A DNA stretch of 59,778 nucleotides, taken from positions 1 through 59,778 of the forward strand of contig JAUUWG010000001.1 in assembly GCA_030589165.1 (NCBI GenBank), read 5' to 3'. Made by a program: the position numbers and the translations under genes. Within the stretch, counting starts at the first letter, position 1. Each line of letters starts with the position of its first letter. This document shows positions 329 to 54,705 of the stretch, one piece after another. Source of the stretch: Desulfobacterales bacterium (lineage in GTDB: Bacteria > Desulfobacterota > Desulfobacteria > Desulfobacterales > JAFDHS01). The notes under the pieces are model-generated. The model was not told the origin of the DNA. It searched no databases and was given only the letters and a program-made list of their open reading frames with translations.

Positions 329-2044
329 ATGAAAACTGCTTTACTTGTTGAACCTCACGGCGGTAATCCGGTAAATCTTCTTGTTGATGAAGATCGCTCT
401 GCGCTGCTTAAAGAGATCTCTCTCAGCCTGCCGGATATCAGTTTAAACGATCGCCAGCTTTGTGACCTTGAACTTCTTGCAACAGGTGCTTTTTCACCCC
501 TTGACGGTTTTATGGTTCGGTCTGACTATGAATCCGTTCTCGACCGAATGCGGTTGCAAAGTGATATTCTATGGCCCCTGCCGATTTGTCTTGATATATC
601 CGATACACAGGCCCGCAATATTGAGGGGGGGCAGTCCGTGGCGATAAGAGACCCGGAAGGTTTTCTTCTTGCCGTTATGCATGTGGAAGATATATGGCCT
701 GTTGATCGTGAAAAAGAGGCCTTAAGGGTTTATAATACCCTTGATCGTTCCCATCCGGGCGTAGATTATCTTTTCAGGAAATCAGGTGATTTCTATATGG
801 GAGGGAGGCTAGAAGTTTTGAGCCTGCCGCTTCATTTTGACTTTAAGCAGCTTCGCATGTCTCCTGAAGAGATCAAAAATATATACGGTAAACTCGGCTG
901 GCAAAGGGTGGTCGGGTTTCAGACCCGAAACCCCATTCATCGGCCCCAGTTTGAAATGACGATCAGGGCCATGCGCCAGGCAAAGGCGAATCTGCTTTTG
1001 CTTCCGGTTGTGGGCATGACAAAACCGGGGGATTTTGACCACTATACCCGACTAAGATGTTATCGCGAAGTGATAAAAGACTACCCGCCGGATTCTTTTA
1101 TTTTGAATCTGCTCTCCCTTGCTATGCGTATGGCCGGCCCCAGAGATGCCGTTTTACATGCAATAATATCCAAAAATTACGGATGTACTCATTTTATTAT
1201 CGGGCATGACCATGCAAGCCCGGGCATGGACGGCAACGGAAAGCCGTTTTATGCAAGCGATGAAGCTTGCCTGCTGACAAAAGATCTAAGCAGTGAAATC
1301 GGTATCAGGATTCTCCCCTTTGAAGAGATGGTCTATCTCCCTTTTGAGGATGAGTACCGATCTTTCGATGAGATACCGGCGGAAACCCAGACGGTTTCCT
1401 TGTCGGCTTCCGATATCCGGGAGCGTATCCGTACAGGGCGCCGCATACCTGAATGGGCCACCTCCCCTGATGTTGTAAGGGAGCTCCAAAGAGCTTATCC
1501 TCCACCGAAAAAACAGGGATTTACGGTTTTTCTAACCGGGCTTTCAGGTGCGGGTAAATCCACCATAGCCAAGGTCCTCTATTCTCGTTTCCTGGAAATC
1601 GGCAACCGTCCGGTTACCCTTCTTGACGGCGATATTGTCCGCCGGAATCTCTCCAGTGAGTTGAGTTTTTCCAAAGAGCACAGGGACATTAACGTAAGAC
1701 GTATCGGATTTGTCGCAAGTGAAATTACCAAGAACCGTGGAATAGCGATCTGTGCACCCATCGCTCCGTATGAATCCACTAGAGCGGAGATAAGAAAAAT
1801 CATAGAAGAGTGCGGAGGATTTATAGAGGCACATGTGGCCACTCCGATCGAGGAATGTGAAAAAAGGGACAGAAAAGGGATGTATGCAAAGGCCAGAGCA
1901 GGGCTTATCAAGGGCTTTACCGGAGTGAACGATCCGTACGAAATTCCTGAATCACCGGAAGTTCGTATCGACACTACGGATCTTACACCTGATGAAGCAG
2001 CCCAGGAGATCCTTTTGTTTCTGGGCCAAAAGGGGTTTATATAG
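329..2044 (+). CDS. sat/cysC: bifunctional sulfate adenylyltransferase / adenylylsulfate kinase (PAPS synthesis)
   Basis: 571 aa. ATP sulfurylase motifs QTRNPIHRPQFE and HFIIGHDHASPG are present. The C-terminal APS kinase domain has the P-loop LTGLSGAGKSTIA. A GGAG RBS lies upstream. Confidence 0.9.
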   Translation: MKTALLVEPHGGNPVNLLVDEDRSALLKEISLSLPDISLNDRQLCDLELLATGAFSPLDGFMVRSDYESVLDRMRLQSDILWPLPICLDISDTQARNIEGGQSVAIRDPEGFLLAVMHVEDIWPVDREKEALRVYNTLDRSHPGVDYLFRKSGDFYMGGRLEVLSLPLHFDFKQLRMSPEEIKNIYGKLGWQRVVGFQTRNPIHRPQFEMTIRAMRQAKANLLLLPVVGMTKPGDFDHYTRLRCYREVIKDYPPDSFILNLLSLAMRMAGPRDAVLHAIISKNYGCTHFIIGHDHASPGMDGNGKPFYASDEACLLTKDLSSEIGIRILPFEEMVYLPFEDEYRSFDEIPAETQTVSLSASDIRERIRTGRRIPEWATSPDVVRELQRAYPPPKKQGFTVFLTGLSGAGKSTIAKVLYSRFLEIGNRPVTLLDGDIVRRNLSSELSFSKEHRDINVRRIGFVASEITKNRGIAICAPIAPYESTRAEIRKIIEECGGFIEAHVATPIEECEKRDRKGMYAKARAGLIKGFTGVNDPYEIPESPEVRIDTTDLTPDEAAQEILLFLGQKGFI

Positions 2045-2052
2045 TATTTTTT

Positions 2053-2172
2053 AAAAAGTGTGAAGTGCCTAAAGTTTGAAGTGAGCTAAAGTTAATGAAT
2101 CGCTTCGCTCCGTCTTTTTTATATAAAATTGATAGAATACCTTAACTTTAGCTCACTTTAGGCACTTGAAAC
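2053..2172 (-). repeat. CACTTTAG-array / GCGAAGC-core intergenic repeat, copy 1 (full)
   Basis: Structure is AAAAAGTGTGAAGTGCCTAAAGT..GAGCTAAAGTTAA + TCGCTTCGCTCCGTC..TATAAAATTGATAGAATACC + TTAACTTTAGCTCACTTTAGGCAC. The two arms are mutually complementary. Confidence 0.9.
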
Positions 2173-2202
2173 CTAATATAACAACTAAAGGGAAGATAAG
2201 CG

Positions 2203-3498
2203 ATGGGAAATATTTTTAACGCAACTGTTGCTGTTATCGGCCTCGGCTATGTGGGCCTGCCGCTTGCCGTAAATTTCGGCAAAAGATATCCTACTGTAGG
2301 TTATGACTTGAATGAAAAAATTATTTCTAACTACAAGCGAAACACAGACCCTACCGGTGAGGTCTCTCAGACGGATTTTGAAGCCGCGGTCCATTTGACT
2401 TTTACTGCCGATCCAGCCGAGATTTCCAAGGCCGACTTTATCGTTGTTGCCGTGCCTACGCCTATAGATACCGCTCACCGGCCGGACTTAAGTGCGGTAA
2501 CAGGAGCGGTAAGGACTGCGGGAAAGCATATGAAAAAAGGGGCTGTTGTCATTCTTGAATCCACGGTCTATCCCGGTGTTACCGAGGAGGTCTGTGTGCC
2601 TGTTTTAGAGGAAGAATCCGGATTGGTATGGAAGCGTGACTTCCATGTCGGCTATTCTCCCGAGCGGATAAACCCCGGGGATAAGGAACACACCTTGCCT
2701 AAAATTATCAAAGTGGTTTCAGGTGATGACGAAAAAACCTTGAACCGTGTGGCTGATCTTTATGAATCAATTATTGACGCCGGCGTTTACCGTACCACAA
2801 GTATCAAGGAAGCAGAAGCCGCAAAAGTTATTGAAAACACACAAAGAGATTTGAACATTGCTCTGATGAATGAGCTGGCCATAATTTTCGACAAACTGGG
2901 GATTGATACACTCAGTGTGCTTGAGGCCGCCGGTACCAAATGGAATTTTCTTCCTTTTCGGCCGGGGCTGGTAGGCGGCCACTGTATCGGTGTCGACCCC
3001 TATTACTTGACTCATAGAGCCGAGGCTGAAGGTTATCACCCCGAGGTTATCCTGGCGGGCCGCAGGATTAATGACGGAATGGGCAAGTTCATTGCCGAAA
3101 AAACGGTGAAAAATATGATCCGGTCCAATCAGAACATAAAAGGATCAAGGGTGGGTGTTTTAGGGATCACCTTCAAGGAAAATTGTCCTGATCTGAGAAA
3201 CTCAAAGGTCGTGGACATCGTCAGAGAGCTGGAATCTTACGGCATCGATGTTCTGGTCCATGATCCTCAAGCGGATCCTGATGAGGCAAAACGTTTTTTT
3301 GGGGTTTCTTTGTATCCATGGGATGAATTGACCGGGTTGGGGGCCATTATCATAGCCGTTGGACATAAGGAATACAGGAAAAAGGAATTTCGTGAATTTG
3401 CCGACAGGCTGTCTCCAAAAGGATGCCTTGTTGATGTCAAGTCCATTCTTGACCCGTATGAAGCCTCAAAAAGCGGTATTTTGTTCTGGCGGTTGTAG
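2203..3498 (+). CDS. nucleotide-sugar 6-dehydrogenase (UDP-glucose/GDP-mannose dehydrogenase family; TviB/WbpO-like UDP-N-acetylhexosamine dehydrogenase)
   Basis: 431 aa. N-terminal Rossmann motif VIGLGYVGLPLA is present, with catalytic-region GGHCIGVDPYYL and C-terminal UDPG_MGDP_dh-type domain. Confidence 0.85.
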   Translation: MGNIFNATVAVIGLGYVGLPLAVNFGKRYPTVGYDLNEKIISNYKRNTDPTGEVSQTDFEAAVHLTFTADPAEISKADFIVVAVPTPIDTAHRPDLSAVTGAVRTAGKHMKKGAVVILESTVYPGVTEEVCVPVLEEESGLVWKRDFHVGYSPERINPGDKEHTLPKIIKVVSGDDEKTLNRVADLYESIIDAGVYRTTSIKEAEAAKVIENTQRDLNIALMNELAIIFDKLGIDTLSVLEAAGTKWNFLPFRPGLVGGHCIGVDPYYLTHRAEAEGYHPEVILAGRRINDGMGKFIAEKTVKNMIRSNQNIKGSRVGVLGITFKENCPDLRNSKVVDIVRELESYGIDVLVHDPQADPDEAKRFFGVSLYPWDELTGLGAIIIAVGHKEYRKKEFREFADRLSPKGCLVDVKSILDPYEASKSGILFWRL

Positions 3499-3502
3499 AA
3501 TT

Positions 3503-3623
3503 AAAAAAAAGTGTGAAGTGCCTAAAGTGATCTAAAGTGCCTAAAGTTGAGGAATTCTATCAATTTTATATATAAAAAAAGACGGAGCGAAGCGACTCCT
3601 TAACTTTAGCTCACTTTAGATCA
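3503..3623 (+). repeat. CACTTTAG-array / GCGAAGC-core intergenic repeat, copy 2 (full)
   Basis: Structure is AAAAAAAAGTGTGAAGTGCCTAAAGTGATCTAAAGTGCCTAAAGT + TGAGGAATTCTATCAATTTTATATATAAAAAAAGACGGAGCGAAGCGACTCC + TTAACTTTAGCTCACTTTAGATCA. Confidence 0.9.
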
Positions 3624-3658
3624 ATTTTTTATCTTATCCGGGTTAGAAAGGAAAAATA

Positions 3659-4666
3659 ATGAAAGCTTTAGTAACCGGGGCAGCCGGTTTTATCGGCTTC
3701 CATCTAAGCAGACGTCTGCTGCAAAAGGGATATGATGTCGTTGGCGTAGATAATTTAAATGACTATTATGATGTTCAATTAAAAAAAGACCGGCTGGAGC
3801 AATTAAAGCCTTTTAAAAATTTTATCTTCATCCGTTTGGAAATCGCTGATCGTAAAGGCATGGAAAAACTTTTTACCGAACATCGTTTTGACATTGTCGT
3901 CAATTTGGCTGCCCAGGCCGGTGTTCGCTACAGCCTCGAAAATCCGTATGCCTACGTGGACAGCAATGTTTCGGGATTTGTGAATATCCTGGAGGGTTGC
4001 AGGCACAGTAAAGTCTCCCATCTGGTTTATGCTTCCAGCAGCTCCGTCTACGGTTTGAATACGCGGATGCCGTTTTCCGTGCATGACAATGTCGATCATC
4101 CCGTCAGCCTCTATGCCGCAACAAAAAAGAGTAATGAACTCATGGCTCACACATACAGTTACCTCTACGGCCTGCCGACTACCGGTCTCCGTTTTTTTAC
4201 TGTTTATGGGCCCTGGGGAAGACCGGACATGGCCCTGTTTCTTTTTACAAAGGCCATCATAGAGGGTAAACCGATCAAGGTCTTTAACAACGGCCTGATG
4301 AAGCGTGATTTTACTTATATCGACGATATCGTAGAAGGGGTCGTTCGGGTCATGGAGCTGATGCCGGAGCCTGATTCTTCCTGGGACGGCTCTGATCCTG
4401 ATCCGGGGACAAGTCCGGTGCCCTATCGCCTTTATAACATCGGAAATAACAACTGCGTCCAACTGATGGATTTCATCAAGGCGATCGAAACCGCTCTGGG
4501 CAGGAAAGCAATAAAAGAATTTATGCCGCTGCAACCCGGTGATGTGCCTGAAACCTATGCGGATGTGGAAGATTTAAGCAGGGCCGTGGGTTTTCGGCCG
4601 GATACGGATATAACTGATGGAATCAATAACTTCATCTCATGGTATCGTGAATATTATAAAAAATAA
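3659..4666 (+). CDS. NAD-dependent nucleotide-sugar epimerase (UDP-glucuronate / UDP-hexuronate 4-epimerase-like, TviC/CapI type)
   Basis: 335 aa. Motifs are [10 protein letters not shown] (Rossmann), the SDR catalytic YAATKKSNE (YxxxK), and GPWGRPDMA. Confidence 0.85.
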
Positions 4667-4670
4667 GTGC

Positions 4671-4827
4671 AAAAAGTGTGAAGTGCCTAAAGTGAGCTAA
4701 AGTGCCTAATGCCTAAAGTGCCTAAAGTTGAGGAATTTTGTCAATTTTATTATAAAAAGACGGAGCGAAGCGATTCATTAACTTTAGCTCACTTCAAACT
4801 TTAGCTCACTTTAGCTCACTTTTCAGG
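4671..4827 (+). repeat. CACTTTAG-array / GCGAAGC-core intergenic repeat, copy 3 (full, expanded arms)
   Basis: Same architecture as copy 2. The left arm has five xCTAA(A/T)G units and the right arm has CTTTAGCTCA units. Confidence 0.9.
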
Positions 4828-4879
4828 TTCACCCCTTAAGCAAAACTGGAATAAAGTTGTAGAACAAAGGAAATATAAG

Positions 4880-5755
4880 ATGAAAATTCGTAAAGCTGTT
4901 TTCCCCGTTGCCGGATTGGGTACCCGATTTTTACCGGCTACAAAGGCGATGCCAAAGGAGATGCTGCCGGTGGTGGATAAGCCTCTTATTCAATATGCGG
5001 TTGAAGAGGCCTTGGCCTCCGGTATTGAGCAAATTATATTTGTTACCGGCAGGCAGAAGGAGGCTTTGGAGGATCATTTTGACCACCGTTGTGAACTGGA
5101 GCATACCCTCATGGCACGGAGCAAGGATAACCTTTTAATGGAACTGGACGCTCTGATCCCCGAGTCCGGCACCATTATATATACCCGACAGCATGAACCG
5201 TTGGGTTTGGGCCATGCCATCTGGTGCGCCCGGCATGTGGTCGGCGATGAACCCTTTGCGGTTCTTCTTGCCGATGACTTAATAAAGGCCGACCCCCCTG
5301 TTCTTGCTCAGATGTTGAACAAGTTTGAACAGGTTCAGACGTCCATTGTTGCGGTTATCGACGTGGATAAGCGTGAAACGGATAAGTACGGGATTCTGGA
5401 TGCTCAAGATGTGGGAAACGACCTGTGCCGGGTGCGCGGCATGGTAGAAAAACCAAGGCCGGAAGATGCGCCGTCAAATATGGCGATTATAGGACGTTAT
5501 ATATTGATGCCGGAGATATTTCAAATCCTCGGCCAAAAGAAAAAAGGCGCAGGTGGTGAGATACAACTGACGGATGCCATGGCCTTGCTGCTGGAGAAGC
5601 AACCTTTTTATGGTTGTCATTTCAAGGGCATACGCTTTGATTGCGGCTCCAAGGCGGGATTCCAGATGGCAAATATTGCTTTTGCAATGGAAAGACCCGA
5701 ATTAAGATCACGATTGATGCCGTTTTTGGAAAAATTGCTTAAAGCTGAACACTGA
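4880..5755 (+). CDS. galU: UTP--glucose-1-phosphate uridylyltransferase
   Basis: 291 aa. N-terminal motif is KAVFPVAGLGTRFLPATKAMPKEMLPVVDKPLIQY, and VEKP is also present. Confidence 0.9.
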   Translation: MKIRKAVFPVAGLGTRFLPATKAMPKEMLPVVDKPLIQYAVEEALASGIEQIIFVTGRQKEALEDHFDHRCELEHTLMARSKDNLLMELDALIPESGTIIYTRQHEPLGLGHAIWCARHVVGDEPFAVLLADDLIKADPPVLAQMLNKFEQVQTSIVAVIDVDKRETDKYGILDAQDVGNDLCRVRGMVEKPRPEDAPSNMAIIGRYILMPEIFQILGQKKKGAGGEIQLTDAMALLLEKQPFYGCHFKGIRFDCGSKAGFQMANIAFAMERPELRSRLMPFLEKLLKAEH

Positions 5756-5865
5756 AATTTTTTTCGTTTTTTTAAAAAAACTTGACATGAATGTGCCGGA
5801 ATGAAAAAGAGGAGGTGAAAAAAACATAGACTGAGGAGACTCCCGATTTTAGGAGAAAGAAAACA

Positions 5866-6291
5866 ATGGACCCAAAAAATGATGAATTATGGCAAAAGCA
5901 TTCTGATAATTATCTAAAAATGGCATTTGCCTCAGATAAACGAGAGGTTATGGAGAACCCGGATGGATATGGAAAGAGGACCGGAGAATGCGGTGATACC
6001 ATAGAGATATTTATAACCGTCCATAATAATAGTATTCAACATGTTTCATTTGATACAAATGGATGTTTAAACACGACTGCCTGTGCCAATACGGTGGCTT
6101 ATCTGGCAGAAGGCAAAAAATTGAATGAGGCATGGGAACTCACGCCGGACGAAGTTGTCGATTACCTGGAAACGTTACCCGCGGATCATAACCATTGTGC
6201 TGAACTGGCGGTGGGGGCTTTTTATCTTGCCTTGTCCAATTTTGAAGAGGTTAAACGAAACCCCTGGAAGAAGGCATATTTAAAAAAATAA
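5866..6291 (+). CDS. NifU/IscU-like Fe-S cluster scaffold domain protein
   Basis: 141 aa. The three conserved Cys contexts are present: GECGD, NGCLNTTAC and HCAELA. Confidence 0.75.
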   Translation: MDPKNDELWQKHSDNYLKMAFASDKREVMENPDGYGKRTGECGDTIEIFITVHNNSIQHVSFDTNGCLNTTACANTVAYLAEGKKLNEAWELTPDEVVDYLETLPADHNHCAELAVGAFYLALSNFEEVKRNPWKKAYLKK

Positions 6292-6303
6292 CTTCATCAT
6301 AAT

Positions 6304-6360
6304 CTTTAGTTCATTTCAAATTTGAGCTCACTTTTAATTTTTCCGGTTTATCCGGGTTGG
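6304..6360 (+). repeat. partial arm of the CACTTTAG repeat family plus the CCGGTTTATCCGG end motif (copy 4, partial)
   Basis: Sequence is CTTTAGTTCATTTCAAATTTGAGCTCACTTTTAATTTTTCCGGTTTATCCGGGTTGG. This matches the reverse complement of the left edge of the copy at 39801-39830. Confidence 0.7.
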
Positions 6361-6606
6361 GCCTGCAACCCGAAACCCGCGACCATCTCTCCGCCATGAC
6401 CTGCTGATGGTCGCAAAAACCGAATCATACCTTCCTGTTATACTTTTCCTTGAACTTGAACAAAATCCAAGCTCCAATAAATCCTCCTTCAAAAAACGCT
6501 CATTTTTGAGAGGATTGACAAGCAAGGGGTTTTTATAATTTTCGCCTTTAGGCCGTAAAACCCAATCCTTTAGGTTTGGGATATAAGCCTTACTTTAGCA
6601 TTTTTG

Positions 6607-11714: not shown

Positions 11715-11963
11715 TTGGAATCAATTAAAAAATATTACCGTGTCGATCGGAGGGAGATCAGCTTTCTAAGATTTATTTTTGAAGCTTATGACGGCCTTGC
11801 AACCCTGACGACTATAGATCCTGACTCGGGCATTGTGGTATTTTGCATCTCTCCCGGCTGTGAAGAGGATGTGAGAATGATTTTGCAGGATCTTAAAAGA
11901 AATATTATGATTGAATATTTAAAAAAGTGTGAAGTGCCTAAAGTTGAGGAATTCTATCAATAA
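11715..11963 (+). CDS. DUF4911-like small protein (conserved upstream partner of miaB)
   Basis: 82 aa with YYRVDRREISFLRFIFEAYDGLATLTTIDP. It has a TTG start, which is uncertain. The last ~14 codons are encoded by a repeat element. Confidence 0.6.
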   Translation: MESIKKYYRVDRREISFLRFIFEAYDGLATLTTIDPDSGIVVFCISPGCEEDVRMILQDLKRNIMIEYLKKCEVPKVEEFYQ

Positions 11964-11980
11964 CTTTAGTTCACTTTAAA
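11921..11980 (+). repeat. CACTTTAG repeat family, copy 5 (short form lacking the GCGAAGC module)
   Basis: Sequence is AAAAAAGTGTGAAGTGCCTAAAGTTGAGGAATTCTATCAATAACTTTAGTTCACTTTAAA. Confidence 0.8.
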
Positions 11981-16711: not shown

Positions 16712-17551
16712 TTATTCGTTGACAACAACCTCTGCTGTTTTAAGAACTTCATCTTCACGTACAAAACCACTTATCCGCTCTTCTATCACCACTCCTTTTT
16801 CCATTTCAGGGTTGGAGCCTTTATCCACCGCCTTCATCGTTTTTGGATCAAAGGGTTCTCCTATCGTTTTTACGGGATGAATATCAAACAACGCAAGGGT
16901 ATGGTCAAAGCGCCTTATGGCCATTTCATATCCTTCTATAATACCCTCTATTTCTTGACAACGGCGCCTGAAAAAGCTTTTTGATTCTGCTGCGGCAAGA
17001 CTTGCCTTATGTCCTCGGATCAAAGCGTCTCTTATATCAAGGAAAGGCATGACCGTTTTTTTTTCACTGGAGCGTCTTATCCTTTCTTCAAGTTCCGCAA
17101 GCCCTTTGGATCTGTTTTTAAAAAAATCCGCCGATTTTTGAAAAAGCTTTGCCGAATCTTGAAAAAGGTTTGCCGAATCTTTATATGCATCGATAAGAGG
17201 ATTGAGAGCCTTTAATGTTTTATTCTGCTCCCTGTTTTGCATCTTGATCTCCTGTCTTAATGCGGAAAACTCGGATAAAAGCGTATAAAGATCGCATGAG
17301 TCCATTGTGGTCCCTTCTCCTGGGGGCGGAGAATCCGGAAGATCTTTAAGCCAGAATACAAAATCATCCAAGGCCTTTTTTTTCCAGTCAAAAAGACTCT
17401 CGTCTTTTATCTCGGGTTCTATTCTTTTTGAAAGAAAATCAACAAGGTGCTTTATCAGGGGGAGTATCAGGTTTTTGTCGATTTTATCAATAAAAATTGT
17501 GACTTTATCACGAAAGCCTATAACCCATGGGGGAATTTTTAAAAAACGCAT
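16712..17551 (-). CDS. GrpE-like nucleotide exchange factor with a long N-terminal extension
   Basis: 279 aa. The C-terminal half is GrpE-like (PFLDIRDAL.., GEPFDPKTMKAV, GFVREDEVLKTAEVVV). The start codon abuts the stop of the J-like gene. Confidence 0.75.
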   Translation of the reverse strand: MRFLKIPPWVIGFRDKVTIFIDKIDKNLILPLIKHLVDFLSKRIEPEIKDESLFDWKKKALDDFVFWLKDLPDSPPPGEGTTMDSCDLYTLLSEFSALRQEIKMQNREQNKTLKALNPLIDAYKDSANLFQDSAKLFQKSADFFKNRSKGLAELEERIRRSSEKKTVMPFLDIRDALIRGHKASLAAAESKSFFRRRCQEIEGIIEGYEMAIRRFDHTLALFDIHPVKTIGEPFDPKTMKAVDKGSNPEMEKGVVIEERISGFVREDEVLKTAEVVVNE

Positions 17552-20596: not shown

Positions 20597-20842
20597 ATTT
20601 TTTTCTCTTCTGTTTTATCATGATATGAACTTGTAAATAAATTGAACAATCAATATACTGCTTTGGTAATGGCGATGAGCTGATGATAAGATAAAATATA
20701 AATTTTATACTGTATTATCAAGATAATACTAACACATTTTTTAAAAAAATCAAAGAATTGTACAAAATATCCGCTTTTGGTATGCAGCAAAAAAAACAAT
20801 GGATTGATTTTATGTATTTCAAAAATTCAAGCACTAATTTCT

Positions 20843-23800
20843 ATGTCGAACGTTAAGCTTTTTACCGGTAACCGATTGGAAAATCTTTCCGAGGCGTTGG
20901 CCGAGGTTTTAGATAAACCCCTTGCATTTCCCCTGGATGAGGAGGTAATTGTTGTACGGAACAAGGCTATGGAGCAATGGGTATCAATGGAACTTGCCCG
21001 CCATCATGGTATCTGTGCAAACATCAGCTTTTACTCTCCCTATTCCTTTGTTAATGAAATTTTGCGCAAGGTATCCCCCCGGGGTGTTTCCGAAGGCCTT
21101 TCCTTTGATCCCGAGGTAATGACCTGGAAGATCATGAAGGTCCTTCCCACCTTAATTTCGGATAAGAGCTTTGAGAGAATAAGTATTTATCTGGGAAAAA
21201 ACAAAGATGGGAACAGGTGCTTCCAGCTTGCAGAGCGCATTGCCGAGACTTTTTGTCAATATCTTGTTTTTCGTCCTCAAATGATTTTCAGGTGGGAAGA
21301 AGGCAAAGACAACCACTGGCAGGCCAGGCTGTGGAGAGAACTGGTTAAAGGCAATGAAGGCAAGCACCAGGCTGGACTTTTCAAGGCTTTTATTGAAAAA
21401 AATGAAAAAAACCCGCTTCGATCCTCCATGAAGATAGAGGAGGACTTGCCTGAAAGAATTTCGGTTTTCGGTATATCTGCATTGCCGGGCTTTTATATGC
21501 GGGTTTTTGCCGCTATATCCGCCTTTACCCGGATAAATTTGTTTTTCATGTTCCCCTGCAGGGAATATAGGGGCGATTCTCTTTGGGACCAGGACAAAGT
21601 GCCCGGAACTGCAGAGAATAAAAAACAAAGCGGTTCTGAAAAATCTTTGCATCAGGATTATTCATACCTTGAGCCGGGAAACAGCCTGTTTGCATCTATG
21701 GGTACCCAGGGCGGAGAATTTTTTGATCTGGTCAATGGGTTTGACTGGGATCGAATCGAAATTTTCAATGATTCTGACCGGAAAACTCTGCTTGAATGTA
21801 TTCAATCCGATATTCTGAATCTCACGGAGAGCTGCCGGCGATCAAACGGTAAAACGATTGTTGAAAAGAACGACGTCTCAATACAGGTACACTCATGCCA
21901 TGGTCCCATGCGGGAGATCGAGGTCCTGCAGGATAGACTTCTTGCAATGTTTGAAAATAATCCTGACTTGAAGCCGGGAGATATCCTGGTTATGACGCCG
22001 GATATTGAAACCTATGCTCCCTACATTCAATCCGTCTTTGATCTGCCTTTTTCCGATTCAAGACGGATTCCTTTCTGTATTGCGGATCCAAGTGCCCAGG
22101 CGGAACACCGTATTATTGACAACTTTTTTGCTCTTTTGGATTTTGCGGGAGGCCGGTTTGAAGTATCCGGGGTATTATCTCTTCTTGAATCACGGCATAT
22201 ACGGGAAAAGTTCGGTTTATCTGAAAAAGATTTTGAGCTTATCGAAAAATGGGTCAGTGAAACGCGGATCAGATGGGGAATCGATGGACAAAGCCGCAGG
22301 AATTTTGGGCTGCCGGGTATTGAGGAGAATACTTGGAAAGCGGGTTTCTCAAGGCTTTTGCTGGGTTATGCTATGCCCGGACGGCAAAAACATATGTTTT
22401 CCGGCATACTCCCTTATGATGATATGGAGGGGGACGAAGCCGAAGTGCTGGGAAAATTTGTTGAATTTGTAAATCAGATTTTTTCCTCTGCAAAATCTCT
22501 TGAACAAAAACAAATGCCGGGTGAATGGTCTGATATCCTGACGGGTCTTCTTGAAAATTTTTTTGAATCGGATGAGAATACGACCAATGAAAATACAAGC
22601 CGGGAAATAGGCTTAATCCGCCGCACGTTAAGCAGTTTGCGCAACATATCCGATTTGTCGGGTTTTGATGAAAAGATTGATTTGAATCTTATCAAAAATT
22701 ATTTGAGACAAAAGTTTGAAAAACAAGGATTCGGTTTTGGTTTTATTCCCGGCAGCGTGACATTTTGCGCAATGTCGTCCATGGGGGGTATTCCCTTTAA
22801 GGTTATCTGCCTTGTCGGTATGGATAGTGGTGCTTATCCGGGGGAGTCAAAACCCCACGGTTTTGATCTTATGGCGATGAATCCCGAACCGGGTGATCCT
22901 TCCCGCCGGAATGACGACCGTTATGTTTTTCTTGAGACCCTTTTGTCAGCCATGCAGAAACTTTATATCAGTTACATAGGGCAGAGCATTCGGGACAACA
23001 GTGTTATCCCTCCTTCCGTGCTGGTTGGTGAAATCATGGATTACATTGAAGAGAATTTTGAGATTCCCGGCATCAATATTCGCCGACACATGGTTACAAA
23101 ACACCGTCTTCAGGCGTTCAGTCCGGTGTACTTTAAGGGCAGTGCAGGGCCGGGTAATTCAGGCAATGATCCGGATAGGGATGAAAAGCTTTTCAGCTAT
23201 TGCCTGGAAAACTTTCAGACGGCCCGGAGCATTGGTCATGACCGGGAGCATCAGGTGCCTTTTGTCGCCGGTGGTCTTAAGGAACCTGAAGATGAATTCA
23301 AAAGGGTTGATCTGGTGGAACTTTGCCGTTTTTTCAGCAATCCGGCAAAGTTTTTGATTAATAAGCGTCTTGGATTTTCTCTTGAACAAGGGACTTTGAT
23401 TCCTGAAGAAAGAGAGGCATTTGAAATAAAAGGACTTGAGAAGTATGTGCTTGAACAGATGCTTATGGAGAAAAGACTTGAAGGAGAGAGTTTAAAAGAA
23501 TTTCAAGCCTCAGCAATAGCTGCAGGCCGGCTTCCCCATGGAACCATGGGGGAATGCGTGTTTGATCGTCTGGCATGGGGGGTTGATCGGTTTGCCCATT
23601 GGATAAAAGGGTATAGGCATGGGAACCCCTTGGAGCCTGTTGAGGTGGACCTTGATTTGTCGGGTTTCAGGTTGACCGGCAGAATAAATCCCGTTTATCC
23701 TGAGAGATTAATCCATTACCGGTATGCAAAGGTAAAAGCAAAAGATATTCTCAGGATATGGATTCATCACCTGGTGCTGAACTGCATGGATACAAAAAAC

Positions 23801-24220
23801 CTTAAAACAGGCGACTACCCTGAAACCAGCCTGCTTGCGGGCCTTAAGCCAGACGGCCGGGGTGAACCCGTCTTTGCCGCCTGGGAATATCCGCCTGTAA
23901 AAGAGAGCAGACAGATCCTTGAAAATCTGCTTGAAAAATACCGCCGGGGACTGGTAAGGCCCCTTTCATTCTTTCCGGAATCCTCCATGAAATACGCCCG
24001 GCTGGTCATTGAAAAAAACAAGCCCGCCCAAGAGGCTCTTCGAGGTGCTGAAAAAATCTGGAAGGGAAATGATCACCAGCAGGGAGAATGCAGCGACTTG
24101 TATTATCAGCGTTGCTTCGGCAATACGGAGCCGTTGGATTCAAATTTTGAAAAAATTGCCATTGAGATTTTCAGCCCCATATTAAGGAATCAGAAGGAGC
24201 TGGATAAACCGGGAAAGTGA
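20843..24220 (+). CDS. recC: exodeoxyribonuclease V gamma subunit
   Basis: About 1126 aa of RecC-like sequence (LFTGNRLENL.., HSCHGPMREIEVL, RRNDDRYVFLE). The start was moved to the ATG at 20843. The stop codon lies inside a repeat element. Confidence 0.9.
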   Translation: MSNVKLFTGNRLENLSEALAEVLDKPLAFPLDEEVIVVRNKAMEQWVSMELARHHGICANISFYSPYSFVNEILRKVSPRGVSEGLSFDPEVMTWKIMKVLPTLISDKSFERISIYLGKNKDGNRCFQLAERIAETFCQYLVFRPQMIFRWEEGKDNHWQARLWRELVKGNEGKHQAGLFKAFIEKNEKNPLRSSMKIEEDLPERISVFGISALPGFYMRVFAAISAFTRINLFFMFPCREYRGDSLWDQDKVPGTAENKKQSGSEKSLHQDYSYLEPGNSLFASMGTQGGEFFDLVNGFDWDRIEIFNDSDRKTLLECIQSDILNLTESCRRSNGKTIVEKNDVSIQVHSCHGPMREIEVLQDRLLAMFENNPDLKPGDILVMTPDIETYAPYIQSVFDLPFSDSRRIPFCIADPSAQAEHRIIDNFFALLDFAGGRFEVSGVLSLLESRHIREKFGLSEKDFELIEKWVSETRIRWGIDGQSRRNFGLPGIEENTWKAGFSRLLLGYAMPGRQKHMFSGILPYDDMEGDEAEVLGKFVEFVNQIFSSAKSLEQKQMPGEWSDILTGLLENFFESDENTTNENTSREIGLIRRTLSSLRNISDLSGFDEKIDLNLIKNYLRQKFEKQGFGFGFIPGSVTFCAMSSMGGIPFKVICLVGMDSGAYPGESKPHGFDLMAMNPEPGDPSRRNDDRYVFLETLLSAMQKLYISYIGQSIRDNSVIPPSVLVGEIMDYIEENFEIPGINIRRHMVTKHRLQAFSPVYFKGSAGPGNSGNDPDRDEKLFSYCLENFQTARSIGHDREHQVPFVAGGLKEPEDEFKRVDLVELCRFFSNPAKFLINKRLGFSLEQGTLIPEEREAFEIKGLEKYVLEQMLMEKRLEGESLKEFQASAIAAGRLPHGTMGECVFDRLAWGVDRFAHWIKGYRHGNPLEPVEVDLDLSGFRLTGRINPVYPERLIHYRYAKVKAKDILRIWIHHLVLNCMDTKNLKTGDYPETSLLAGLKPDGRGEPVFAAWEYPPVKESRQILENLLEKYRRGLVRPLSFFPESSMKYARLVIEKNKPAQEALRGAEKIWKGNDHQQGECSDLYYQRCFGNTEPLDSNFEKIAIEIFSPILRNQKELDKPGK

Positions 24221-24351
24221 GCTAAAGTGAGCTAAAATTTGAAGTGAGCTAAAGTTAATGAGTCGCTTCGCTCCGTTTTTTTATATATAAAATTGATCCA
24301 ATTCCTCGACTTTAGGCACTTTAGATCACTTTAGTCACTTCACACTTTTTT
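24202..24351 (-). repeat. CACTTTAG-array / GCGAAGC-core intergenic repeat, copy 6 (full, with GGATAAACCGG end)
   Basis: Structure is GGATAAACCGGGAAAGTGAGCTAAAGTGAGCTAAAATTTGAAGTGAGCTAAAGTTAATGAGTCGCTTCGCTCCG..AAATTGATCCAATTCCTCGACTTTAGGCACTTTAGATCACTTTAGTCACTTCACACTTTTTT. Confidence 0.9.
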
Positions 24352-27300: not shown

Positions 27301-27991
27301 GCACGATATATTTGAACATCTTGACTTTACCCAAAAAGATACCCCCCTTATGGAAAATCTGGTGGCTGCTAAACTTGAGGAACACGGCTTTGAGGCTTCG
27401 TGGAAGGGAATTGTTTGTGACATGATCCAAAATGTACTCTCGGTTTCCCTTGAACCGGACAACAAGGGGTTTACCCTGTCCTGTGTCCGGAGTAATGAGC
27501 GGTTAAATGAAATGGAGTTTTATTTCCCTTTAAAATTGATCACACCCAAAAAGCTGAAAAACATATTCGCAAAATACGCAGGATTCAATCTGTCAAAAGT
27601 TTTTCCTGATCGTATTGAAAAGCTTGACTTTGAACCTGTCAAAGGGTTTATGAGAGGATTTGTGGATCTGATTTTCAAGTTTGCCGACAGGTTTTATATT
27701 GTGGACTGGAAATCTAATTTTCTCGGGGGCAGGGGAGCCGATTATAACCAAAACGCCATGAACAAAGCCATGGCGGATGAATTTTATATCCTGCAGTATC
27801 ACATATATGCCGCCGCTCTGAACAGATATCTCCACAAGCGTCTGCCCGGCTACACCTATGAAAAACATTTCGGGGGGGTGTATTACATATTTTTGCGGGG
27901 AGTGGATTCGGACAAAGGCCCGGATTACGGCATCTACAGGGCCAGACCCCCGGTCGGATTAATAAATGAGTTATGTGAAGGGCTGATTTAG
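24371..27991 (+). CDS. recB: exodeoxyribonuclease V beta subunit (helicase-nuclease)
   Basis: 1206 aa. SF1 helicase motifs are ASAGTGKTFT, IDEFQDTD, TMHKSKGMEYP and VALTRAK. The C-terminal PD-(D/E)xK nuclease has GFVDLIF..YIVDWKSN. Confidence 0.93.
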   Translation: MPENNFDLLNSPLDGTNLIEASAGTGKTFTITGLFLRLLLEKGLLVENILVVTFTDAATQELKERIRTQLRQAIEAFSKGESEDLFLSGLVKRDADTKRALKSLRDAVRSFDQAAIFTIHGFCRRMLIENAFESGSLFDTELITNQEDLIRKIVDDFWRKHFYEQSVLFLNYVMAKKLSPENFSSLLREAFQPDLKVIPELDPPDSSDTLEKDFRKAYEAVSTSWELNRTDVENILISHKGLNRTRYKKANIPVWISRMDDYLASQHNNVVLFSGFEKFTSSLLQGSVKKNHTAPDHPFFDCCEALKESSERLVKLFQDRITALKKKLFVYVQNELAVKKQEKNVQYFDDLLLKLHTALNNKCGERLADEIRKRFKAALIDEFQDTDPVQYAIFNTVFARADNSILFLIGDPKQAIYGFRGADIFAYMDAAKHVTSRYTLKTNWRSDPRLVEAINTLFENADTPFVYREIPFYPALGTQREGFESLRINGKEELPLQLWYLDAGKITGQGKPLSKSVARDRIVMAVLAQISRLLNLGVQGKASLGDRPLKQGDIAVLVRRNAEADKIRKALTDLNINSVVYSTENIFDSLEALEMEILLSGILNPGNEARLKAVLATDMMGLSGEDLESLTEDEIAWEEWLVKFKEYHDVWSGHGFIRMFKHLIQNEKILGRLMAFSDGERRSTNLLHLSEILHQTGIEKKMGMPDLLKWLSRQRDPGSPRLEEHQLRLESDEDAVKIVTMHKSKGMEYPVVFCPFTWSSSRITGRKDHFTFHDEHENMRLTLDIGSDNMDKNISFAERELLAENLRLMYVALTRAKNRCYLVWGRFNEAESSAPAYLFHQAQSEDAEDRVGSTCQRFKTLSDQDLLKELNFIKDKSHGSIIVSELPEDQGEKYLQPWENTGELICREFSGKIDQTFRISSFSSLVSRRPQLYEPTDYDEKLQINGSDRDAFEIPSGREELEGIFSFPRGARAGTFMHDIFEHLDFTQKDTPLMENLVAAKLEEHGFEASWKGIVCDMIQNVLSVSLEPDNKGFTLSCVRSNERLNEMEFYFPLKLITPKKLKNIFAKYAGFNLSKVFPDRIEKLDFEPVKGFMRGFVDLIFKFADRFYIVDWKSNFLGGRGADYNQNAMNKAMADEFYILQYHIYAAALNRYLHKRLPGYTYEKHFGGVYYIFLRGVDSDKGPDYGIYRARPPVGLINELCEGLI

Positions 27992-28143
27992 TCTCTTAAT
28001 TCTGAAATTTGTGCTTTTTATAGCAAAAAAAAACAATTCTTTCCGCCACCAAGACACAAAGACACGAAGAATATAATCTAAAAATATTACTTTGTGCCTT
28101 CGTGACTTTGTAGCAAATAACGTTGGTTCCGGTTTATCCGGTC
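27991..28143. repeat. second intergenic repeat family: 31-nt module shared with 49071-49101, a CTTCGTG/CTTTGTG inverted-repeat hairpin, and a CCGGTTTATCCGG motif
   Basis: GTCTCTTAATTCTGAAATTTGTGCTTTTTAT is identical at 27991-28021 and 49071-49101. ACAAAGACACGAAG..CTTTGTGCCTTCGTGACTTTGT is an inverted repeat. The CCGG motif is at 28129-28141. Confidence 0.8.
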
Positions 28144-39800: not shown

Positions 39801-39955
39801 ACCCGGATAAACCGGGAAAGTTAAAAGTGAGCTAAAGTTAATGAGTCGCTTCGCTCCGTCTTTTTACATATAAAATTGATAGAATTCCTCAACTTCAGTC
39901 ACTTCAGTCACTTCAGTCACTTTAGTCACTTTAGCTCACTTTAGCTCACTTTAGC
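39801..39955 (-). repeat. CACTTTAG-array / GCGAAGC-core intergenic repeat, copy 7 (full, 7-unit right array)
   Basis: Structure is CCCGGATAAACCGGGAAAGTTAAAAGTGAGCTAAAGTTAATGAGTCGCTTCGCTCCGTC..AAATTGATAGAATTCCTC + AACTTCAG (TCACTTCAG)x2 (TCACTTTAG)x2 (CTCACTTTAG)x2. Confidence 0.9.
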
Positions 39956-47179: not shown

Positions 47180-47244
47180 TATATAAAAATGATAAAGCGA
47201 AGCGACTCCTTAACTTTAGTCACTTTAGTCACTTTAGTCACTTT
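47180..47244 (+). repeat. CACTTTAG repeat family, copy 8 (half element: core remnant plus right array)
   Basis: Sequence is TATATAAAAATGATAAAGCGAAGCGACTCCTTAACTTTAG(TCACTTTAG)x2TCACTTT. Confidence 0.8.
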
Positions 47245-49070: not shown

Positions 49071-49191
49071 GTCTCTTAATTCTGAAATTTGTGCTTTTTA
49101 TCCAAGTATATAAAAAGACGGAGCGAAGCGACTCATCAACTTTAGTCACTTTAGCTCACTTTAGTCACTTTAGTCACTTTAGCTCACTTTT
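49071..49191 (+). repeat. composite intergenic repeat: 31-nt family-2 module fused to a CACTTTAG half element (copy 9)
   Basis: GTCTCTTAATTCTGAAATTTGTGCTTTTTAT is followed by TATATAAAAAGACGGAGCGAAGCGACTCATCAACTTTAG TCACTTTAG CTCACTTTAG TCACTTTAG TCACTTTAG CTCACTTTT. Confidence 0.85.
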
Positions 49192-51162: not shown

Positions 51163-51210
51163 TTTTACATACCTTTTATGTTGATTGTGAAAAATTTTAC
51201 ATATCTTTTA
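51163..51210 (-). promoter_or_regulatory. pair of 16-bp direct repeats upstream of the sigma54 element (candidate enhancer / activator sites)
   Basis: TTTTACATACCTTTTA (51163-51178) and TTTTACATATCTTTTA (51195-51210) match at 15 of 16 positions. They are spaced 32 bp apart, 115-160 bp upstream of the -24 element. Confidence 0.35.
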
Positions 51211-51312
51211 ATCACGGTTATTTTAGTTTTCTTTAAATCATAGTTATTTTACTTTGTCCATAGGGGGGAGGACTCATTTTCATGGGTAAAACTCCCAAAA
51301 CAGAAGGGGGTA

Positions 51313-52524: not shown

Positions 52525-52550
52525 GGATACTCCAGGTTGTTATTTTTTTT

Positions 52551-53132
52551 GACAGGATAACAGGATAAACAAGATTAATTGAAAATGCTGTTTGTCATCA
52601 TTTTAAGTCTTTTATTTTACGCTTAATTTCAACTTTTTTTTCTCCGAAATTCAGAATCAGGCCTATAGGCTTGCCTGTAGCAACAAGGTAATTAACCAGT
52701 TGTACTTCATGGGCTTGTACAATTTGTCTAACTGACTTTAATTCCAAAATAATTGTATCTTCTACAATAATATCGGCTACAAATTTCCCGACTACCTCAT
52801 TTTCATAATATACGATAATGGGCTGTTGTGCTTTTGTGTTAAGTTCCTCTTTACGCAGTTCGATAAGCATACATTTCTCATATACGCTTTCAAGAAACCC
52901 AAATCCCATTTTATTATAAACACGGAAAGCACATCCGATAATTTTTTCTGTCAACTCACGGCATTCCATTTTATTATTAACTCCCGAAACTACAATTAAG
53001 GCCATAACTACCCAAGCATATATTTTAAAATATTGAAGTCCCCGGGAAGTAAGTTTCTTAAGGAGCTTACCTTCTTGAAATTCTGAAAAATTTTTGTTCT
53101 GACACTTATCATGTTCATCCTGTTATCCTGTC
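52551..53132. repeat. perfect 16-bp inverted repeats flanking the GxxExxY gene (cassette boundaries)
   Basis: GACAGGATAACAGGAT at 52551-52566 has its exact reverse complement ATCCTGTTATCCTGTC at 53117-53132. Confidence 0.85.
52598..52969 (-). CDS. GxxExxY protein (PD-(D/E)XK-like small protein family)
   Basis: 124 aa from the ATG at 52969. The signature GFGFLESVYEKCM (GxxExxY) is present, plus the ILELKSV..QLVNYL..GLILNFG pattern. Confidence 0.8.
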   Translation of the reverse strand: MECRELTEKIIGCAFRVYNKMGFGFLESVYEKCMLIELRKEELNTKAQQPIIVYYENEVVGKFVADIIVEDTIILELKSVRQIVQAHEVQLVNYLVATGKPIGLILNFGEKKVEIKRKIKDLK

Positions 53133-54705
53133 AAATATTTTTATTATTACCCTCTTCATCCACGACCAGCTTTACATCAGGGTATTTTTGTATCAGGGGC
53201 TGGTTTTCCGGGGTGTTTTTCACAAATATATTAGCCACCTTATCGGCATATATCAACTTCCAGTCCTTTCTCTCCATAAGAAAGACTGATAATGTCGAAT
53301 TTGCATTGTATATAATCCAGTTGATTTTATATTTTTCAATAACCTCGTCCCAACCCGGCTTGATACTTCTTACCTTTAAATACTCTTTCATTCTGTCAAC
53401 TCCGTACATATCGGATCTGCCGTCAAAAAAGACCTTGAATTCCGGCCATGCAGAATAGATGATATAGTCGCCGAACTCATCGTTATCAAACATATTTCCT
53501 TTTAGATTCTCTTTTTTCATAAATTCTACGGCAGCCACAGGCTTGCTCTTTTCATCAAACTTAAAGTCTATTTTACCGCCTGCTGCAGAAACAACGACCA
53601 ATACCATTGCTGCAACCGGCCACAAAAAACCTCTTGCGAATGCATCCGTTTCGGAAATGCTGTCTGATCTTTTTTTGAGAAAGCCGGCAAATCTTCCATT
53701 TGCCTGCTCCAATATCAATATTAACTGTCTTAATAAAATCGGCGCGGCAATGATGCCCAAAAGGGGAATATACCTTACCGAATAGAGAGACATATTGGTA
53801 AACAGCAGGATTAAAAGGAGTTCTATAAAATTTATTTTTACTTTTGAACCGGCAAATACGGCCAGCATCAAAAGCAGGAGATACTTGAACGGCATCACCT
53901 CATGAAAGTTGGGTGACATGAACTCCGAAACATGATCCATGATAAACTTGTTTGAGACCAGGTTGAAAGGAAACATCAGAATATGGAAGCCGTAAGGGTT
54001 TATCAGGGAAACAAGAAGACAGGCAACAGTTGTAAGACCAAGCAGCCCGGCCTTTTTCTTATGAAAATCTTTTTCTTTACCCTGCGAAGTAATGAACTTT
54101 GCCAGATTACCAAACAGGTAAATGCCGGTCAGAATAAAACCGGCCAGGAAACCCCCATGCAGGTTAACCCAGAGGAGCATCATCAGCGGCAGGAGATACA
54201 GATAGTTTTTATTGTTATATTGATATTCATCAAGCAGGTAATACCAGGCTATCATCAGGACCAGTGAAAATATATGGGGCCTGGCCAGCCAGTGTATTTG
54301 TGATGACACGATAACGAGTAAAACGATAAAGGCGGCCAGGATGATATTGTCTTTGTCGGTACGGATTATTTTAAGCAGCAGGTAATAAACCAGGGAGATA
54401 ATAAAAGAGAAAAAAACAACGATTCCGGTAAGGCCGAAGGCCTGGTGAACCATCGCCATAATTACCTCGGAAAGCCACTCGTGGGCGGTCCAAGGAAGGG
54501 CAGGGGAGAGGAAGGAGAACATATCCTGCTTCGGGATTGAAAGGGTTTTTATTATGTACTCTCCCGCACGTATATGATAGCCGGTATCCCCGTCGTTCAA
54601 AAGCTCCTTGCCCGCGGAAAACGACAGAAAAAGAAAAAGGGCTATAAACATAATATCGGCAATTGAAGGTATTAAAAAAGAGATGCTTTTTTTCGTCTGA
54701 GTCAT
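53131..54705 (-). CDS. polytopic membrane protein, probable GT-C-fold glycosyltransferase
   Basis: 524 aa with more than 10 predicted TM segments. The first periplasmic loop has NDGDTGYHIRAGEYI..WTAHEWLSEV, and there is a soluble C-terminal domain. The assignment rests on architecture only. Confidence 0.5.
   Translation of the reverse strand: MTQTKKSISFLIPSIADIMFIALFLFLSFSAGKELLNDGDTGYHIRAGEYIIKTLSIPKQDMFSFLSPALPWTAHEWLSEVIMAMVHQAFGLTGIVVFFSFIISLVYYLLLKIIRTDKDNIILAAFIVLLVIVSSQIHWLARPHIFSLVLMIAWYYLLDEYQYNNKNYLYLLPLMMLLWVNLHGGFLAGFILTGIYLFGNLAKFITSQGKEKDFHKKKAGLLGLTTVACLLVSLINPYGFHILMFPFNLVSNKFIMDHVSEFMSPNFHEVMPFKYLLLLMLAVFAGSKVKINFIELLLILLFTNMSLYSVRYIPLLGIIAAPILLRQLILILEQANGRFAGFLKKRSDSISETDAFARGFLWPVAAMVLVVVSAAGGKIDFKFDEKSKPVAAVEFMKKENLKGNMFDNDEFGDYIIYSAWPEFKVFFDGRSDMYGVDRMKEYLKVRSIKPGWDEVIEKYKINWIIYNANSTLSVFLMERKDWKLIYADKVANIFVKNTPENQPLIQKYPDVKLVVDEEGNNKNI

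Follow-up and report, generated by a model that had tools for sequence, protein, structure and literature searches.

What are the palindromic repeats that fill one gap after another in a gene string of a Desulfobacterales genome, and with which known kind of element do they belong? The stretch in question (59,778 nt of contig JAUUWG010000001.1, assembly GCA_030589165.1; hereafter the window) carries nine full or partial copies of one repeat, roughly one per 7 kb, three of them in consecutive gaps of the string that leads from sat/cysC to galU. A sequence-only reading of the window had taken the repeat for an undescribed element of the repetitive extragenic palindrome (REP), bacterial interspersed mosaic element (BIME) or miniature inverted-repeat transposable element (MITE) type that partitions operons. 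We arrive at a different kinship. The repeats are probably amplified derivatives, devoid of an open reading frame (ORF), of a small palindromic selfish cassette of the intervening sequence (IVS) type that sits in messenger RNA operons. The same arms and loop modules enclose genes of the 23S_rRNA_IVP family in relatives, which makes the 23S rRNA IVS, and not the REP, the closest known kind of element.

Forward (F) is used here for the strand on which the terminus AAAAAGTGTGAAGTG comes first, followed by a left arm of (NN)CTAAAGTG units. The loop then runs through CCTAAAGT, an A module (TTRAGGAATTCTRYCAA), an AT-rich joint (TTTTATATAAAAAGAC), a B core (GGAGCGAAGCGACTCC) and TTAACTTTAG, and the 3' side consists of (NN)CACTTTAG or CTCACTTCAAACTTTAG units and a closing CACTTT[TCCGGTTTATCCGGGT]TAGG. 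What had been described as a single asymmetric core is really two modules, A TTGAGGAATTCTATCAA and B GGAGCGAAGCGACTCC, joined by the AT-rich stretch, and the supposed optional end is a small GC hairpin, CCGGTTTATCCGG, lodged within a CACTTTAGG unit; in other genomes, different small hairpins are nested in the arms or the loop. The nine copies are as follows.

2053..2170, minus strand: full ORF-less copy 1, in the gap from sat/cysC to UDP-glucose dehydrogenase; fold z -5.3/-6.8
3506..3652, plus strand: full ORF-less copy 2, in the dehydrogenase/epimerase gap; fold z -4.2/-5.4
4671..4827, plus strand: full ORF-less copy 3, in the epimerase/galU gap; fold z -5.1/-6.4
6304..6360, plus strand: partial copy 3' of a NifU-like gene, with right-arm units and the CCGGTTTATCCGG end, and without the core
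11921..11980, plus strand: internally deleted copy with left terminus, one unit, A module and right-arm units
24202..24351, minus strand: full ORF-less copy, in the recC/recB gap; fold z -3.6/-2.9
39801..39955, minus strand: full ORF-less copy, in the T2SSF (TadC-like)/TPR gene gap of the tad operon
47180..47244, plus strand: half element with AAGTATATAAAAA, a degenerate B core and a right array, without the left arm
49107..49191, plus strand: half element with AAGTATATAAAAAGAC, the B core and a right array (5.6 units)

All nine lie where the sequence-only reading had placed them, the flanking genes agree with it (sat/cysC, UDP-glucose dehydrogenase, epimerase, galU and NifU; recC, recB and recD; tad/Flp pilus genes), and they exceed chance by far. 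The core GACGGAGCGAAGCGA, searched for with up to two mismatches, was matched six times where 0.03 matches are expected (2100-, 3581+, 4759+, 24263-, 39846- and 49117+), no match having more than one mismatch, and a degenerate seventh core lies at 47196. The unit CTAAAGTG is matched 21 times in the window against 1.2 by chance, the A module TTGAGGAATTCTATCAA occurs six times, the terminus AAAAGTGTGAAGTG has five exact matches, and the end hairpin CCGGTTTATCCGG was found at 6343, 24200 and 39803 and, solitary, at 28129. The GC content of the copies is 0.28-0.39 compared with 0.443 window-wide, and their arms are tandem arrays of period 9-10 (as called by Tandem Repeats Finder), among them a long 9-nt array of 6.8 units in the tad copy. 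The arms can indeed pair, as had been proposed: every copy yields long imperfect hairpins on both strands (fold z = -2.9 to -6.8), with predicted stems of about 25-45 bp, where an IVS calls for at least about 20 bp. Stop codons, which had been attributed to the arms in all three frames, occupy all six frames of the full copies and of the 60-nt copy at 11921, and the other three partial copies go without them. None of the nine copies contains an ORF, no part of the window matches Rfam at gathering score, and the window holds no tRNA or tmRNA as an insertion landmark, and no rRNA either.

The modules do not keep a fixed relation to one another. Copy 1 has its A module, AT joint and B core on the minus strand, opposite to the cores of copies 2 and 3 as had been noticed, and carries the terminus AAAAAGTGTGAAGTG at the left end of the plus strand. 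The terminus module therefore lies on the B-core-side arm in copy 1 and on the opposite arm in copies 2 and 3 and in that at 24202; being uncoupled from loop polarity, it indicates that the loop was flipped, or the modules reshuffled, between near-palindromic arms. The copy at 11921..11980 has lost both the AT joint and the B core, and the half elements at 47180 and 49107 comprise AAGTATATAAAAAGAC, the core and the right array only, the latter lying in a secretin/RcpC gene gap with the module GTCTCTTAATTCTGAAATTTGTGCTTTTTAT before it.

The evidence for kinship with the IVS comes from what the same arms hold elsewhere. A genome scan with the exact pattern, limited to one genome per species, returned at least 100 loci (designated by L numbers), and a phmmer search over all ORFs of 100 of these genome loci revealed only three genes of the S23p/Avd-like four-helix-bundle family (at L090, L029 and L026), all three enclosed by arms, with CTAAAGTG arrays upstream and CACTTTAG arrays downstream. 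The family (Pfam PF05635 23S_rRNA_IVP, TIGR02436), which was discovered within 23S rRNA IVSs, is common, multi-copy and spread over many phyla. The cassette ORFs match PF05635 (E = 1e-13) and TIGR02436 (E = 2.5e-27), the protein of a complete cassette has about 117 amino acids, and its nearest solved structure is 2RLD, deposited with five chains. At L090, the 5' side consists of CTAAAGTG units, TGAGGAGTCGCTTCGCTC (the B core reversed) and an 18-nt leader before the ATG, and the TAA of the ORF is followed by AAATAGATAGAATACCTTAA (the A module reversed, also written GATAGAATACCTTAA) and then by CTTTAG right-arm units. The L029 ORF lies between a CTAAAGT unit and a CTTTAG array, which provides its stop codon, and adjoins a complete ORF-less copy. 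The ORF at L026, 33% identical, lies between two inverted half elements with the arm unit GAACATCG and the core GAGCGAAGCGA seen elsewhere.

An alignment of these three proteins was then used to scan metagenome contigs, yielding 572 confirmed relatives, of which the best 80 (L101-L180; 61-76% identical to the L090 protein) were retained. By a strict count, a locus had to show two or more forward units in the 130 nt upstream and two or more inverted units in the 150 nt downstream; 51 of the 74 scorable loci among these best 80 did so, and most of the others carry variant units such as CTAGAGT, ACTTAGAGT or TTTGGAGT, with complements downstream. The mean was 2.7 units upstream and 3.3 downstream, against 0.3 and 0.3 for wrong-way controls and 0.05 and 0.08 for background sequence of the same length, and the arms pair at -60 kcal/mol on average, compared with -42 when the downstream arm is shuffled. 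In many cassettes, the stretch from the last unit to the ATG lacks a Shine-Dalgarno sequence. The end motif of some flanking genes presumably resembles that of Bacteroidota PorP/SprF proteins, in which case the cassette would cross phyla.

How do the ORF-less copies relate to these cassettes? In alignments, copy 1 is colinear with the sequence on either side of the L090 ORF, and copy 2 with that around the L136 ORF, where the polarity is that of F (arm, A module, ORF, B core, arm), and in both the position of the ORF is taken by a joint of about 15 AT-rich nucleotides. Some 40 metagenome-assembled genomes (MAGs) supplied 77 copies that have a left arm, and the patterns for A module, AT joint and B core were matched by 40 of these copies; the remaining 37 were classed as other, and the six of these that were printed are, by eye, A-module variants. 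The loop up to the core measures 24-64 nt in all 77. A single shared joint is what one proliferating ORF-less master predicts, and not what many independent deletions would leave. The window copies, with no ORF of their own and with ORFs in relatives that share their arms, qualify only as ORF-less derivatives.

Turnover between relatives is visible at orthologous sites. The ORF present at L029 is absent from L080, with flanks 88-93% identical, and where L090 has its ORF, the orthologous L006 has lost the ORF together with the right arm, and its core has decayed. In the closest relative of the window (L075, from MAG Meg22_1214_Bin_289, 94% identical), copies 1-3 all have orthologs that differ by indels of whole units (37 nt in copy 1, 22 nt in copy 2 and 16 nt in copy 3), which indicates that the arrays evolve fast, through gain and loss of units. 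Copy 3 of L075 also harbors another element, 102 nt long and unrelated to the family, whose ends are inverted (CCTGGCCCAGACC ... GCCAGGGCGGG; L075 2871-2972); it is inserted at TTAAC|CTTTAG and absent at window position 4782, such that the window and L075 form a clean filled/empty pair for it. Its end sequence also breaks the right arms at L004, L005, L011, L078 and L108, and these recurrent interruptions suggest that it targets the repeats.

A search for the core in other Desulfobacterota had been proposed, and the genome scan found the family in many Desulfobacterales MAGs; the matches listed are nearly all in seep and sediment MAGs of Desulfobacterales/Desulfobacteraceae, among them Eth-SRB1, Eth-SRB2 and Guaymas bins. 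In viral contigs, the core pattern was not matched. A few copies lie on low-coverage contigs in bins that bear the labels Anaerolineales, Bacteroidales, archaeon, Gammaproteobacteria and Saccharibacteria (L001, L005, L009, L023, L024, L043, L062 and L063), contigs that are most likely mis-binned; at nine copies per 60 kb, such repeats break metagenome assemblies, a plausible cause of mis-binning. A census took in 77 copies that have a called gene no more than 400 nt away on either side, and it shows them to be intergenic and without orientation bias: 31 lie forward and 26 reverse between co-directional genes, 13 between convergent and 7 between divergent genes.

The kind of element closest to these cassettes has been described from Leptospira (Ralph & McClelland 1993) and Coxiella burnetii (PMC4990558) as the 23S rRNA IVS, viewed as selfish. 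The Coxiella IVS, a selfish element, spans 428 nt and contains an S23p ORF; its 28-bp terminal inverted-repeat stem is cut by RNase III in vitro, with the 5' cut at the first repeat, and two or three tandem GACAGAT heptamers, strain-variable in number, lie just 5' of the ATG (PMC4990558). The likeness to the Desulfobacterales family extends to the PF05635 ORF in the loop (here in gene-bearing relatives), to tandem short units of variable number, to the existence of ORF-less or decaying forms, and to the lack of an own promoter, the element riding, here presumably, on the host transcript. Unlike the rRNA IVS, however, the Desulfobacterales copies lie between protein genes of operons and not in helix 25 or 45 of the 23S rRNA, their units measure 8-10 nt, the ORF-less form has been amplified to nine copies in 60 kb, and an A module, the GAGCGAAGCGA core and nested small GC hairpins have been added. 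The excision of rRNA IVSs is performed by RNase III, with which the predicted length of the Desulfobacterales stem is compatible.

On this footing, a sequence of events can be proposed. A complete cassette would consist of a left (NN)CTAAAGTG array, a loop with the four-helix-bundle gene and an inverted right CACTTTAG array, and one ORF-less master derived from it would have spread in trans as MITEs do. The elements would be co-transcribed with the host operon, since the cassettes show no promoter signal and lie inside operons. In the transcript, the arms would pair into a stem of 25-45 bp that, by analogy with the IVS, could be cleaved by RNase III; this step we put forward tentatively, rating it a little below even. 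Cleavage would split the operon transcript, and complete cassettes would release a four-helix-bundle mRNA with a short leader and its AUG atop the stem. In the most speculative step, and one that we regard as rather doubtful, the pentameric protein would recognize the tandem units and aid spread or maintenance.

Several observations weigh against a derivation of this kind. No gene-bearing copy is present in the window, and no high-identity empty site was found for the family: synteny with L050 breaks down past the site, L065 ends in repeats, and a look-up of exact proteins returned identical layouts only. No target-site duplication could be established at insertions, for which there is no clean filled/empty pair, and transposition of the ORF-less form would follow from shared architecture only. 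The asymmetry of G.U versus A.C pairs, compared between sense and antisense at gene-bearing loci, reached p = 0.07, and in the ORF-less copies it is independent of the direction of host transcription (p = 0.63); neither test points to selection on RNA, and neither lends support to the RNase III step. A or B modules occur in a minority of the 80 metagenome cassettes (the best of 572), which suggests that the immediate parent lineage is thinly sampled. To our knowledge, the four-helix-bundle family has no biochemical activity outside the Avd protein of diversity-generating retroelements (DGRs). Finally, the Coxiella S23p is probably not expressed, according to its authors (PMC4990558).

The alternative that survives best is compatible with a cassette origin and concerns the arms themselves, which might be arrays of binding sites for a multimer, most plausibly the pentameric four-helix-bundle protein, such that the period of 9-10 nt and not the hairpin is functional. 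The arms do consist of tandem units, typically 3-6 per arm, instead of unique sequence; the unit varies with the protein sub-lineage (GAACATCG at L026, AATTCGT in Nostoc, CGTAAAT in Planktothrix); and 2RLD, the closest solved relative, has five chains. The same co-variation would arise without binding from linked inheritance of gene and arms, however, replication slippage alone can build arrays, and the inverted arrangement and its complementarity are conserved too, so that we hold binding as the reason for the arrays to be doubtful, if worth keeping in mind.

A classical MITE, in which AAAAAGTGTGAAGTG and its inverse are the termini that an ordinary transposase from elsewhere in the genome recognizes, with the four-helix-bundle genes as passengers or as secondary insertions into palindromes already present, would account for small size, terminal inverted repeats, absence of an ORF, high copy number and unbiased intergenic placement, and the insertion of the unrelated 102-nt MITE demonstrates that these repeats can be insertion targets. 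MITEs share with the Desulfobacterales family the many small, near-identical, ORF-less copies with inverted ends and an apparent longer, gene-bearing source with the same ends. Here, however, the longer elements that end alike code for a four-helix-bundle protein and not for a recognizable transposase, and the arms are tandem arrays of variable number. As the sequence-only reading had stated, no transposase adjoins any copy, which now holds for the window and for 180 loci, and no Y1 match was obtained there. The gene is arm-enclosed in nearly every relative examined, across phyla and unit types, which is unexpected for a passenger, and the terminus module is missing from most copies in other MAGs. 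We therefore consider a classical MITE distinctly unlikely. Of the earlier classification, a dispersed, modular, palindromic, ORF-less intergenic family remains; the MITE part of it found no transposase-bearing parent and no established target-site duplication.

Equally improbable, in our judgment, is host-selected punctuation of operons (terminators, attenuators, mRNA stabilizers or processing sites) as the primary cause of the repeats, although punctuation as a side effect is possible. Every copy lies at a gene junction of an operon, fitting tightly from the upstream stop codon to the ribosome-binding site of the next gene: copy 2 closes with a degenerate hairpin end, TTATCCGGGTTAG, immediately 5' of the epimerase ribosome-binding site, copy 3 starts at the epimerase stop codon (TAAGTGC...), and several copies begin at, or provide, the stop codon of the upstream gene. 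Strong hairpins on both strands, a core that in reverse is terminator-like (GGAGTCGCTTCGCTCC and then a T run) and the retention of copies at orthologous sites between 94%-identical genomes would likewise suit such a role. Against it, the census shows no orientation bias relative to the genes, and in the region 1900-6500 terminator-like sites number 1 against 5.0 in shuffled sequence and promoter-like sites 8 against 7.4. Nor is there a G.U signature of host transcripts, unit numbers drift quickly, and kinship with a selfish ORF cassette explains the origin without a host function. The proposal that the element partitions operons holds for position only. A separate observation concerns the recC ORF (20777-24220), whose last seven codons and TGA (24218-24220) lie inside the element at 24202..24351, which implies that the insertion remodelled the C-terminus of a housekeeping protein.

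The REP/BIME label fares worst: movement of a REP doublet (REPIN) by a REP-associated tyrosine transposase (RAYT), a Y1 HUH enzyme that would read the GCGAAGC mini-hairpin on single-stranded DNA, would suit the high-copy, mosaic, modular extragenic palindromes at operon junctions, a family-specific gene within inverted repeats and an 11-mer, GAGCGAAGCGA, common to families with different arms, but it is very improbable given that a 20-40-nt REP palindrome headed by GTAG is lacking, that the arms are tandem 8-10-nt units, that the flanked gene belongs to a non-enzymatic fold family, that the core is absent from most gene-bearing cassettes and merely part of the inverted repeat at L162 and L026, and that the 4923 ORF segments searched in the window and the 180 loci (about 800 kb) include no Y1/RAYT-like ORF, a weak negative. 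At both L162 and L026 the core lies on both sides of the ORF. DNA mini-hairpins with a GNA loop reportedly form a very stable class, and the core variant GCGCAGC, seen at L136 and L162, retains GNA. The importance that the sequence-only reading gave to the GCGAAGC mini-hairpin is unproven; the core is one of two interchangeable inner-stem modules. As a side observation, the 11-mer GAGCGAAGCGA (variant GAGCGCAGCGA) is common to repeat families with quite different arms (L026 from Eth-SRB1, L019, L089 and L162), with arm units such as GAACATCG, ATTCCA and CGGAGTTCGGAGTG.

Two further candidates were rejected. An outward promoter (TTGAGG-N17-TATAAA) or reverse-strand terminator fails on the absence of orientation bias, on matches not above those of shuffled sequence and on hairpin insertions that alter the spacing elsewhere; and a small RNA gene or protein sponge fails since the copies occur in both orientations, inside operons and with variable unit number.

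Beyond the Desulfobacterales, the IVS-type cassette design recurs with other units. Genes on Nostoc, Planktothrix and Chlorohelix plasmids whose products share 36-45% identity with the L090 protein lie between inverted arrays of other short units: (AATTCGT)x5, ATG-ORF-TAA and (ACGAATT)x4 in Nostoc flagelliforme (fold -80 kcal/mol), (CCCCAAT)n and (CGTAAAT)4 before the gene and the complement after it in Planktothrix agardhii, and the units AATCCAAAATC and GATTTTAGATT in Chlorohelix. The CCCCAAT heptamer of the Planktothrix arms we take to be the STRR1 unit of the short tandemly repeated repetitive (STRR) sequences, heptamer repeats that have reportedly been known from cyanobacteria since 1990. 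The STRR heptamers and the TAACTGA repeats of Beggiatoaceae (PMC4679880) resemble the arms as short tandem intergenic units but, unlike them, were described as direct arrays, mostly upstream and in one orientation, and not as inverted pairs around a four-helix-bundle ORF; the Beggiatoaceae repeats, being direct and orientation-biased 5' repeats, were rejected as an instance of the same design (PMC4679880). The distant cassettes lie co-directionally between host genes (drmD and MmeI; DUF1156 and a HEPN gene; fabH and an M20 hydrolase; one just upstream of cas1). We also observed that the genes at L183, L185 and L187 (Pseudanabaena, Planktothrix and Chlorohelix plasmids) are located within defence operons (cas1, drmD/MmeI and DUF1156/HEPN), and the 23S_rRNA_IVP family has been noted inside cas loci before (PMC3936711); such associations may be due to selfish insertion and not to functional partnership.

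A comparison with DGRs is invited by the protein and not by the locus. No reverse transcriptase, template repeat or variable repeat lies near any copy here. In DGRs, Avd binds nucleic acid and a reverse transcriptase. Avd belongs to the same superfamily and forms pentameric four-helix bundles (PMC10053308), and the four-helix-bundle family is still termed functionally uncharacterised (PMC11270868).

The window also contains a locus that reads as the same cassette design with another family of small ORF, as well as a small ORF-less palindrome of related design that is built of other units.

52548..53135, minus strand: GxxExxY / PDDEXK_3 cassette with its gene at 52598-53005 (TIGR04256, E = 4e-41)
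28047..28141, plus strand: CACRAAGA / CTTYGTG units arrayed as a small ORF-less palindrome (28047-28111), with the CCGGTTTATCCGG hairpin after it (28129), in the recB/recD gap

An inverted repeat of 28 nt (93% complementarity), composed of CAGGATAA units, encloses the GxxExxY gene. One may conjecture from these parallels that four-helix-bundle proteins and, in parallel, GxxExxY proteins are the trans-acting factors of widespread transposase-less palindromic cassettes, in which a pentamer would recognize arrays of tandem 7-10-nt units in the arms, the cassette would travel on host transcripts until freed by RNase III, and ORF-less copies would be propagated in trans. We think this generalization unlikely to hold as a whole, but if true it would unify the 23S rRNA IVSs, the Desulfobacterales repeats and at least part of the cyanobacterial STRR arrays, and would also account for 23S_rRNA_IVP genes in cas and other defence operons.

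Which part of this is new? An IVS-type selfish cassette with a four-helix-bundle ORF is known already, as are ORF-less IVSs. We found no description of many such cassettes between protein-coding genes, of arms built as inverted short tandem arrays as a rule across phyla, or of an amplified ORF-less derivative in Desulfobacterales. The arrangement appears in none of the searchable literature, which excludes most subscription journals and database family notes, and an earlier description may therefore exist. A vague annotation would become a defined class of element, with a protein and a binding site as candidates and with an RNase III substrate and mobilization in trans as predictions.

Among minor observations, the module GTCTCTTAATTCTGAAATTTGTGCTTTTTAT precedes both the recB/recD array and the half element at 49107 (27991-28141; 49072-49102) and also occurs in L065. 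Two further tandem repeats were seen in the window, one with a period of 21 nt at 17115-17181, in or near the ORF 16712-17551, and one with a period of 26 nt at 51194-51255, which is intergenic.

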